A stretch of 64,000 bases of DNA from Escherichia coli. GTDB lineage: Bacteria; Pseudomonadota; Gammaproteobacteria; Enterobacterales; Enterobacteriaceae. The position numbers and the translations under genes are program-made. Position 1 is the first letter of the stretch; every line of letters begins with the position of its first letter. The notes under the pieces are model-generated. The model was not told where the DNA came from, ran no database searches, and worked only from the letters and a program-made list of their open reading frames with translations. The DNA is taken from NCBI RefSeq assembly GCF_048403405.1, contig NZ_CP183129.1, one strand, 5' to 3'. Shown in pieces: positions 39,502-39,610 of this stretch.

Positions 39502-39509
39502 TCCGCCCC

Positions 39510-39546
39510 CTGGGTGTATATACAGTTATGCTGTGAGTATATACAG
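39510..39546. promoter_or_regulatory. two tandem LexA (SOS) boxes upstream of lexA
   Basis: Read on the - strand: TGCTGTATATACTCACAGCA and AACTGTATATACACCCAG, both CTGT-N8-ACAG type, within 50 bp of the lexA ATG. Confidence 0.88.
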
Positions 39547-39610
39547 CAAAAGGCGATTTTGGAACCATAAACTGCACAATAAACCAGAGATTTATCGAAA
39601 TCTGGAAGGG

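Follow-up and report, generated by a model that had tools for sequence, protein, structure and literature searches.

The tandem LexA boxes of the lexA promoter and the terminator-like hairpin before dinF in an Escherichia coli genome

Known lexA operators and the locus in this strain

The tandem operators in front of lexA were among the first repressor binding sites to be characterized. Autoregulation of lexA and its induction by RecA-stimulated self-cleavage of LexA are established, and dinF, which has no operator of its own, is described as co-transcribed with lexA (PMC6590174). Two SOS boxes are reported at lexA (PMC2994835), and those of Salmonella are located at distances of 6 and 27 bp from the ATG (PMC8072944), a geometry that is also that of the locus studied here. 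This locus is part of a stretch of 64,000 nucleotides of E. coli DNA (contig NZ_CP183129.1), the whole of which we call the window, and it shares with the lexA-dinF unit of K-12 (b4043-b4044) the gene order plsB, dgkA, lexA, dinF, yjbJ, zur. From upstream of the -35 element to the ATG, the promoter/operator region of lexA is 100% identical to that of K-12 MG1655; the operators do not differ, the boxes occupy the same positions relative to the ATG, and the lexA gene itself departs from that of MG1655 at two silent positions only. Judged from this identity, the tandem boxes are the K-12 lexA operators themselves, an already known feature, and their earlier interpretation as LexA boxes is supported. 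They bring no new biology, the sequence being that of the reference strain. The value of the check lies mainly in calibration: an element picked out by eye is real, yet the strict consensus quoted for it fits only one of the three SOS boxes of the window.

The gene that follows the boxes is encoded on the minus strand (38893..39501, with its ATG at 39501..39499) and specifies 202 amino acids. Its product matches both the LexA DNA-binding family (Pfam PF01726) and the Peptidase_S24 family (PF00717), scores 289.5 bits against the NCBIfam lexA equivalog TIGR00498 (cutoff, 111), and aligns with LexA chains of the PDB at E=1e-129, including the DNA-complex entries 3jso, 3jsp, and 3k3r. The cleavage site A84-G85 and the catalytic residues S119 and K156 are present. 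By all of these matches, the gene downstream of the tandem boxes is lexA, and its predicted protein is intact.

Of 5426 complete E. coli genomes, 5425 contain a match to a 2.7-kb segment around lexA (37400-40100), and the 80-bp segment that holds the lexA promoter shows ≥99% identity in 5331 of 5425 genomes. Over the whole of 37400-40100, identity amounts to just 95-99% in 4945 of the 5425 genomes, the lexA promoter itself being nearly invariant, and the source strain therefore represents a minority lineage for this region. A handful of strains (e.g., TUM14771 and MS 69-1) are 100% identical over the same segment, and the annotation there reads dgkA, lexA, dinF.

The two boxes, their scores, and the promoter

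The first-pass annotation had described two CTGT-N8-ACAG operators lying back to back within 50 bp upstream of the lexA ATG. Their place and coordinates hold, with the correction that lexA and dinF are read on the minus strand; the spacing, which might have been miscounted, is correct in both boxes. The motif itself stands for the distal box, which is exact, and has to be amended for the proximal box, which ends in CCAG. Positions 39499..39548 of the plus strand read cat tccgcccc CTGGGTGTATATACAG ttatg CTGTGAGTATATACAG ca, and the sense strand 5' of lexA accordingly reads ...ttcc aaaatcgccttttg CTGTATATACTCACAG cataa CTGTATATACACCCAG ggggcgga ATG. The distal 20-mer (TGCTGTATATACTCACAGCA; 39529..39548, minus strand) is identical to that of K-12, and its core (CTGTATATACTCACAG; 39546..39531, minus strand) is an exact CTGT-N8-ACAG that holds the putative -10 element. 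The proximal 20-mer (AACTGTATATACACCCAGGG; 39508..39527, minus strand) contains the CTGT-N8-CCAG core CTGTATATACACCCAG (39525..39510, minus strand), which ends 8 nt before the lexA ATG. The two cores are separated by 5 bp and are 21 bp apart from center to center, the 20-mers are 1 bp apart, and both boxes fall within 47 bp of the ATG. In the literature, the distal box is the lexA motif in Table 4 of PMC3009722, and the proximal box matches ACTGTATATACACCCAGG, the motif given for lexA,dinF in Table 7 of the same paper.

The strict string is a poor guide to these sites. An exact CTGT-N8-ACAG occurs once in the 64 kb, at the distal lexA box, against a mean of 0.61 in shuffled sequences, so that one exact match is not significant alone; with one mismatch allowed, the window contains 19 matches for 17.7 expected, which is no enrichment. 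Since the pattern by itself was uninformative, we replaced it with a Berg-von Hippel heterology index over 20 positions, the calculation that the first-pass annotation had named as a check, and scored 63,981 positions of the window. Two matrices were used, one made from 16 E. coli LexA sites and the other from 17 other E. coli sites taken from PMC3009722 (Table 4), the lexA site being excluded; both were made here and neither is the original Lewis 1994 matrix, so that their scale differs from that of published indices. With both matrices, the distal lexA box, the proximal lexA box, and the box shared by uvrA and ssb rank 1, 2, and 3 among the 63,981 positions. Their scores with the second matrix are 8.09, 8.79, and 9.38, respectively, inside the range of the training sites (1.7-12.35), and the next best position scores 13.28; the three boxes thus separate cleanly from the background. 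When the window was shuffled 1000 times and scored with the first matrix, sites with an index of ≤9.1 occurred at a mean of 0.033 per window, and a tandem pair (two sites at ≤12, 16-45 bp apart) was found in none of the shuffled sequences. A published rule asks for an index below about 15 for the LexA box of a gene (PMC11002266). It is the position-weighted index, and not the CTGT-N8-ACAG string, that separates true sites from background.

The third box of the window (TACTGTATATTCATTCAGGT, 22652..22671) is common to the divergent genes ssb (21964..22500, minus strand) and uvrA (22755..25577, plus strand), both identified by NCBIfam matches. Its core (CTGTATATTCATTCAG, 22654..22669) reads CTGT-N8-TCAG, with one mismatch to the strict motif, and matches the published uvrA motif. 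The published index of this box is 6.98 (PMC9505508), a value that differs from our 9.38 because we used our own matrix. According to the same source, the shared box overlaps the -35 element of uvrA, and of the three ssb promoters it controls only one (PMC9505508). It is an operator of the same type as the lexA boxes, with a similar index, and the CTG-N10-CAG frame is kept by all three. It differs from them in being single, in serving two divergent genes, and in lying far from both starts (the uvrA ATG is 83 nt away and the ssb ATG 151 nt), whereas the lexA boxes are tandem and close to the ATG. No fourth LexA site of comparable index was found among the 63,981 positions of the window, so the earlier count of three SOS operators was right.

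Two weaker LexA-like sequences deserve mention. The fourth-best 20-mer (TACTGTCGTGAAAAACAATA, 8880..8899) has an index of 12.8-13.3 and reads TTG, not CTG, in one half-site. It is intergenic, between a 489-aa open reading frame on the minus strand (7400..8869) and a 652-aa open reading frame on the plus strand (9229..11187). A weak CTG-N10-CAG (CTCTGGTTTATTGTGCAGTT, 39570..39589) with an index of 15.5-16.6 lies just upstream of the lexA -35 element, 41 bp from the center of the distal box. This sequence is retained in Escherichia albertii and in two Enterobacter loci (L038 and L092). We considered it as a third lexA box and rejected it, its spacing or its CAG being gone in Citrobacter, Klebsiella, and Enterobacter sp. 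Ag1; the resemblance is probably due to chance.

The lexA promoter was assigned by eye, with the help of cross-species conservation. The putative -10 hexamer, TATACT (39536..39541, minus strand), lies inside the distal box and was chosen by eye and for its retention across species. The putative -35 hexamer, TTCCAA (39559..39564, minus strand), also chosen by eye, is located 17 bp upstream of the -10 and is part of a GGTTCCAA block that is largely conserved in Enterobacterales. Because this hexamer fits only three of the six positions of TTGACA, a consensus promoter scan made no call at lexA. With these elements, the transcription start is predicted close to 39529, some 28 nt 5' of the ATG. The assignment agrees with what we take to be the mapped promoter.

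We regard it as nearly certain that the locus is a negatively autoregulated E. coli lexA promoter with tandem SOS boxes, from which dinF is reached downstream by read-through of a hairpin, and none of the results gathered here contradicts this explanation. LexA is expected to bind both boxes, which are identical to K-12 sites that the literature treats as LexA sites. In the mechanism that we propose, two LexA dimers would occupy the two adjacent 20-bp boxes. The distal box contains the putative -10 TATACT and reaches the predicted start near 39529, so that LexA bound there should exclude RNA polymerase. The proximal box would extend over about +3 to +22 of the leader, as far as the ribosome-binding G-run, and could form a second block. 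The 21 bp between the centers amount to two helical turns and would put both dimers on one face of the DNA, where they may bind cooperatively. Upon DNA damage, RecA filaments would trigger self-cleavage of LexA at A84-G85, and the emptied operators would allow transcription of lexA and of dinF downstream, the latter being reached by read-through of the terminator-like hairpin behind the lexA stop codon. Fresh LexA would then shut the regulon off once the damage signal fades.

Tandem boxes across Gammaproteobacteria

A scan of one genome per species with the pattern CTGTAT-N7-CAG-N(0-16)-CTGTAT-N7-CAG returned at least 121 matches at at least 120 loci. In 76 of 121 matches, those listed with a lexA homologue downstream, the pair lies 4-125 nt, mostly 7-11 nt, upstream of that gene, and the hosts listed comprise Pseudomonas, Vibrio, Shewanella, Aeromonas, Haemophilus, Pseudoalteromonas, Idiomarinaceae, and Enterobacterales. 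Because the pattern demanded both half-sites, conservation at those positions follows from the design of the search, and the informative positions are those that the pattern left free. At core positions 6-11 of the distal box, TATACT is found in 42 and TATAAT in 27 of the loci listed, which together make 69 of 76. An A at position 7 combined with a T at position 11 (TAnnnT) is present in 75 of 76 distal boxes versus 1 of 76 proximal boxes among the loci listed, and when only distinct sequences listed are counted, in 17 of 18 distal versus 1 of 35 proximal ones. The putative -10 is thus kept in distal boxes across species, which points to a distal operator built around the -10 element. In these other Gammaproteobacteria, as in E. 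coli, lexA is directly preceded by two boxes of which the distal one contains the -10-like hexamer; from the end of the proximal box to the start codon there are usually 7-11 nt, compared with 8 nt in E. coli.

What does vary is the spacer between the boxes. Among the loci listed, Pseudomonas, Shewanella, and Erwiniaceae have 3 bp; Vibrio, Aeromonas, and two of three Haemophilus loci have 4 bp (the third has 5 bp); Enterobacteriaceae, Serratia, and Photorhabdus have 5 bp; and Pseudoalteromonas has 8-9 bp. The 5 bp of the present locus therefore contrast with the 3, 4, or 8-9 bp of Pseudomonas, Vibrio, Shewanella, Haemophilus, and Pseudoalteromonas. We rejected a fixed helical phasing as a conserved requirement, given that the spacer runs from 3 to 9 bp between clades, and it follows that same-face cooperative binding of LexA would not be a conserved requirement either.

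A related arrangement is that of the recN promoter, in which two adjacent CTGTAT-N7-CAG boxes likewise stand just 5' of the start codon and which the same scan recovered in Enterobacterales and Shewanella. The recN-type loci have a 6-bp spacer in 14 of the loci listed, compared with 5 bp at E. coli lexA, and three further RecN-like loci have spacers of 3, 3, and 13 bp. Unlike those of lexA, the tandem boxes of recN are not autoregulatory. The loci with a 6-bp spacer (L015, L021, L022, L027, L039, L061, L064, L074, L076, L080, L091, L111, L117, and others) precede proteins of about 553 aa with a RecN-like N terminus (GETGAGKS), and we judge these proteins to be RecN from their N terminus and their length. 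Together, lexA and recN make up most of the tandem SOS boxes among the matches listed.

The scan also returned tandem CTGTAT-N7-CAG pairs with 3-4-bp spacers that have no lexA downstream on the same strand. Such pairs are found in Burkholderiales and an unclassified metagenome-assembled genome (L020, L041, and L103) and in the Burkholderia group (L037, L054, L069, L072, and L108). Three of these pairs precede open reading frames with an asparaginase-like GTGGTIAG motif, and others have no called open reading frame downstream.

These comparisons bear on two other ways of reading the pair upstream of lexA. One would grant function to the exact distal box only and regard the proximal CTGT-N8-CCAG as decayed or as a chance look-alike. 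The proximal box does stray from the strict palindrome and scores slightly worse than the distal one (8.79 versus 8.09), and in Salmonella the promoter-proximal lexA box has a poor index of 14.48, the second lexA box having been missed by FIMO (PMC8072944). Yet the proximal lexA box ranks second among the 63,981 positions and has an index well inside the training range, and a CCAG right half is found in many accepted sites, among them those of recN, dinI, uvrD, uvrB, ruvA, cho, and dinB (PMC3009722), as well as in 33 of the 76 distal boxes among the loci listed. Moreover, a second box occupies the proximal position upstream of lexA in at least 76 gammaproteobacterial loci, and the very sequence discussed here is tabulated as a LexA motif for lexA,dinF (PMC3009722 Table 7). 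We therefore consider a nonfunctional proximal box extremely improbable. The other reading, that the pair is merely AT-rich promoter sequence with TATA repeats and no operator at all, could appeal to the -10 hexamer held by the distal box and to the TA-rich character of both boxes, but we give it practically no credence: CTG and CAG triplets placed 10 bp apart set the lexA boxes off from the background, AT-rich sequence elsewhere in the window scores poorly, and the proximal box is retained although it lacks a -10-like hexamer in 75 of 76 loci listed. The preferred explanation thus remains that of two LexA operators in tandem.

The hairpin between lexA and dinF

Downstream of lexA and on the same strand lies dinF, which encodes a MATE efflux transporter (37495..38820, minus strand, 441 aa; in the K-12 annotation, the start is at 38874 and the protein has 459 aa). 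Its product scores 909.6 bits against the NCBIfam DinF equivalog. Outside Enterobacterales, dinF is not directly downstream of lexA, and the Aliivibrio homologue is 1.7 kb away. Between the lexA stop codon and the conserved DinF start, we noticed a terminator-like hairpin (38853..38882, minus strand) with a 13-bp stem and a 4-nt loop, followed by GTTTTTC. Folding of 38882..38853 yields -24.9 kcal/mol and a z score of -4.89, and 0 of 200 shuffles folded as well. A single base, located in the loop, distinguishes this hairpin from that of K-12. Of 13 other Enterobacterales loci, 11 have a strong predicted hairpin, often of unrelated sequence, directly behind the lexA stop.

Such a structure invites the reading that lexA and dinF form no true operon, the hairpin ending the lexA transcript and dinF being expressed independently. 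The GC-rich 13-bp stem with its T-run right after the lexA stop (z, -4.89), the strong hairpins after lexA in 11 of the 13 other loci, and a distance between the genes that is probably 72 bp, not 18 bp, would all fit. Against it, dinF is damage inducible, as exemplified by its induction by ciprofloxacin (PMC11002266), yet no promoter-like match was found before dinF on the lexA-dinF strand in the consensus scan and no LexA-like site was found from the lexA start to dinF, where the best index is 21.5. In tiling arrays, a single continuous transcript induced by UV spans lexA and dinF (PMC3009722 Fig. 4), co-transcription of the two genes is stated in a review (PMC6590174), and RNA polymerase occupancy across lexA-dinF rises under stress (PMC3739934). 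Partial read-through of the hairpin would reconcile the terminator with co-transcription, and we deem fully independent expression of dinF very unlikely. The reading of lexA-dinF as an operon is supported, co-transcription being taken from the literature.

This operon had been proposed in the first-pass annotation on the ground that dinF follows lexA with an 18-bp gap. The adjacency on the same strand and the lack of a box proper to dinF are confirmed; the gap depends on the annotation, and the hairpin had been overlooked. A distance of 18 bp is obtained with the K-12 start at 38874, the first in-frame ATG, which yields the 459-aa protein, versus 72 bp with the start that RefSeq PGAP places at 38820 in an identical strain, 54 nt further downstream, which yields the 441-aa protein. 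Positions 1-440 of the NCBIfam DinF model, which has 441 positions, are matched by residues 1-440 of the 441-aa protein. In E. albertii, a 2-nt difference in length puts the ATG of the hairpin out of the dinF frame, and the hairpin is kept; in most other Enterobacterales loci, no in-frame upstream start for dinF exists, and the gaps are mostly 63-239 nt, with one of 13 nt. The PGAP annotation, the NCBIfam model, the frame in E. albertii, and the other Enterobacterales loci all favor the start at 38820 and a 72-bp gap, and on these sequence comparisons lexA and dinF are probably separated by 72 bp and not by 18 bp.

The more likely arrangement is therefore a 72-bp spacer with a partial terminator that is read through to reach dinF. 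As dinF has neither an operator nor a recognizable promoter of its own, its expression would depend on read-through of the hairpin, and the presence of a strong terminator-like hairpin between the genes implies that dinF would be coupled to lexA only incompletely, part of the transcription presumably terminating there. That the hairpin after the lexA stop is a genuine partial terminator that sets the LexA:DinF ratio is a proposal that we advance tentatively and to which we give a little less than even credence. If it is true, lexA-dinF would be an attenuated operon and not a tightly packed one, and the 459-aa start of K-12 DinF would be an artefact, because its ATG (38874) lies within the 5' arm of the GC-rich hairpin stem, the real start being 54 nt downstream. 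Two by-products of the analysis may have some minor practical value, namely the conflict between the two annotated DinF starts, with the hairpin that holds the disputed ATG, and the clade-specific spacing of the lexA boxes.
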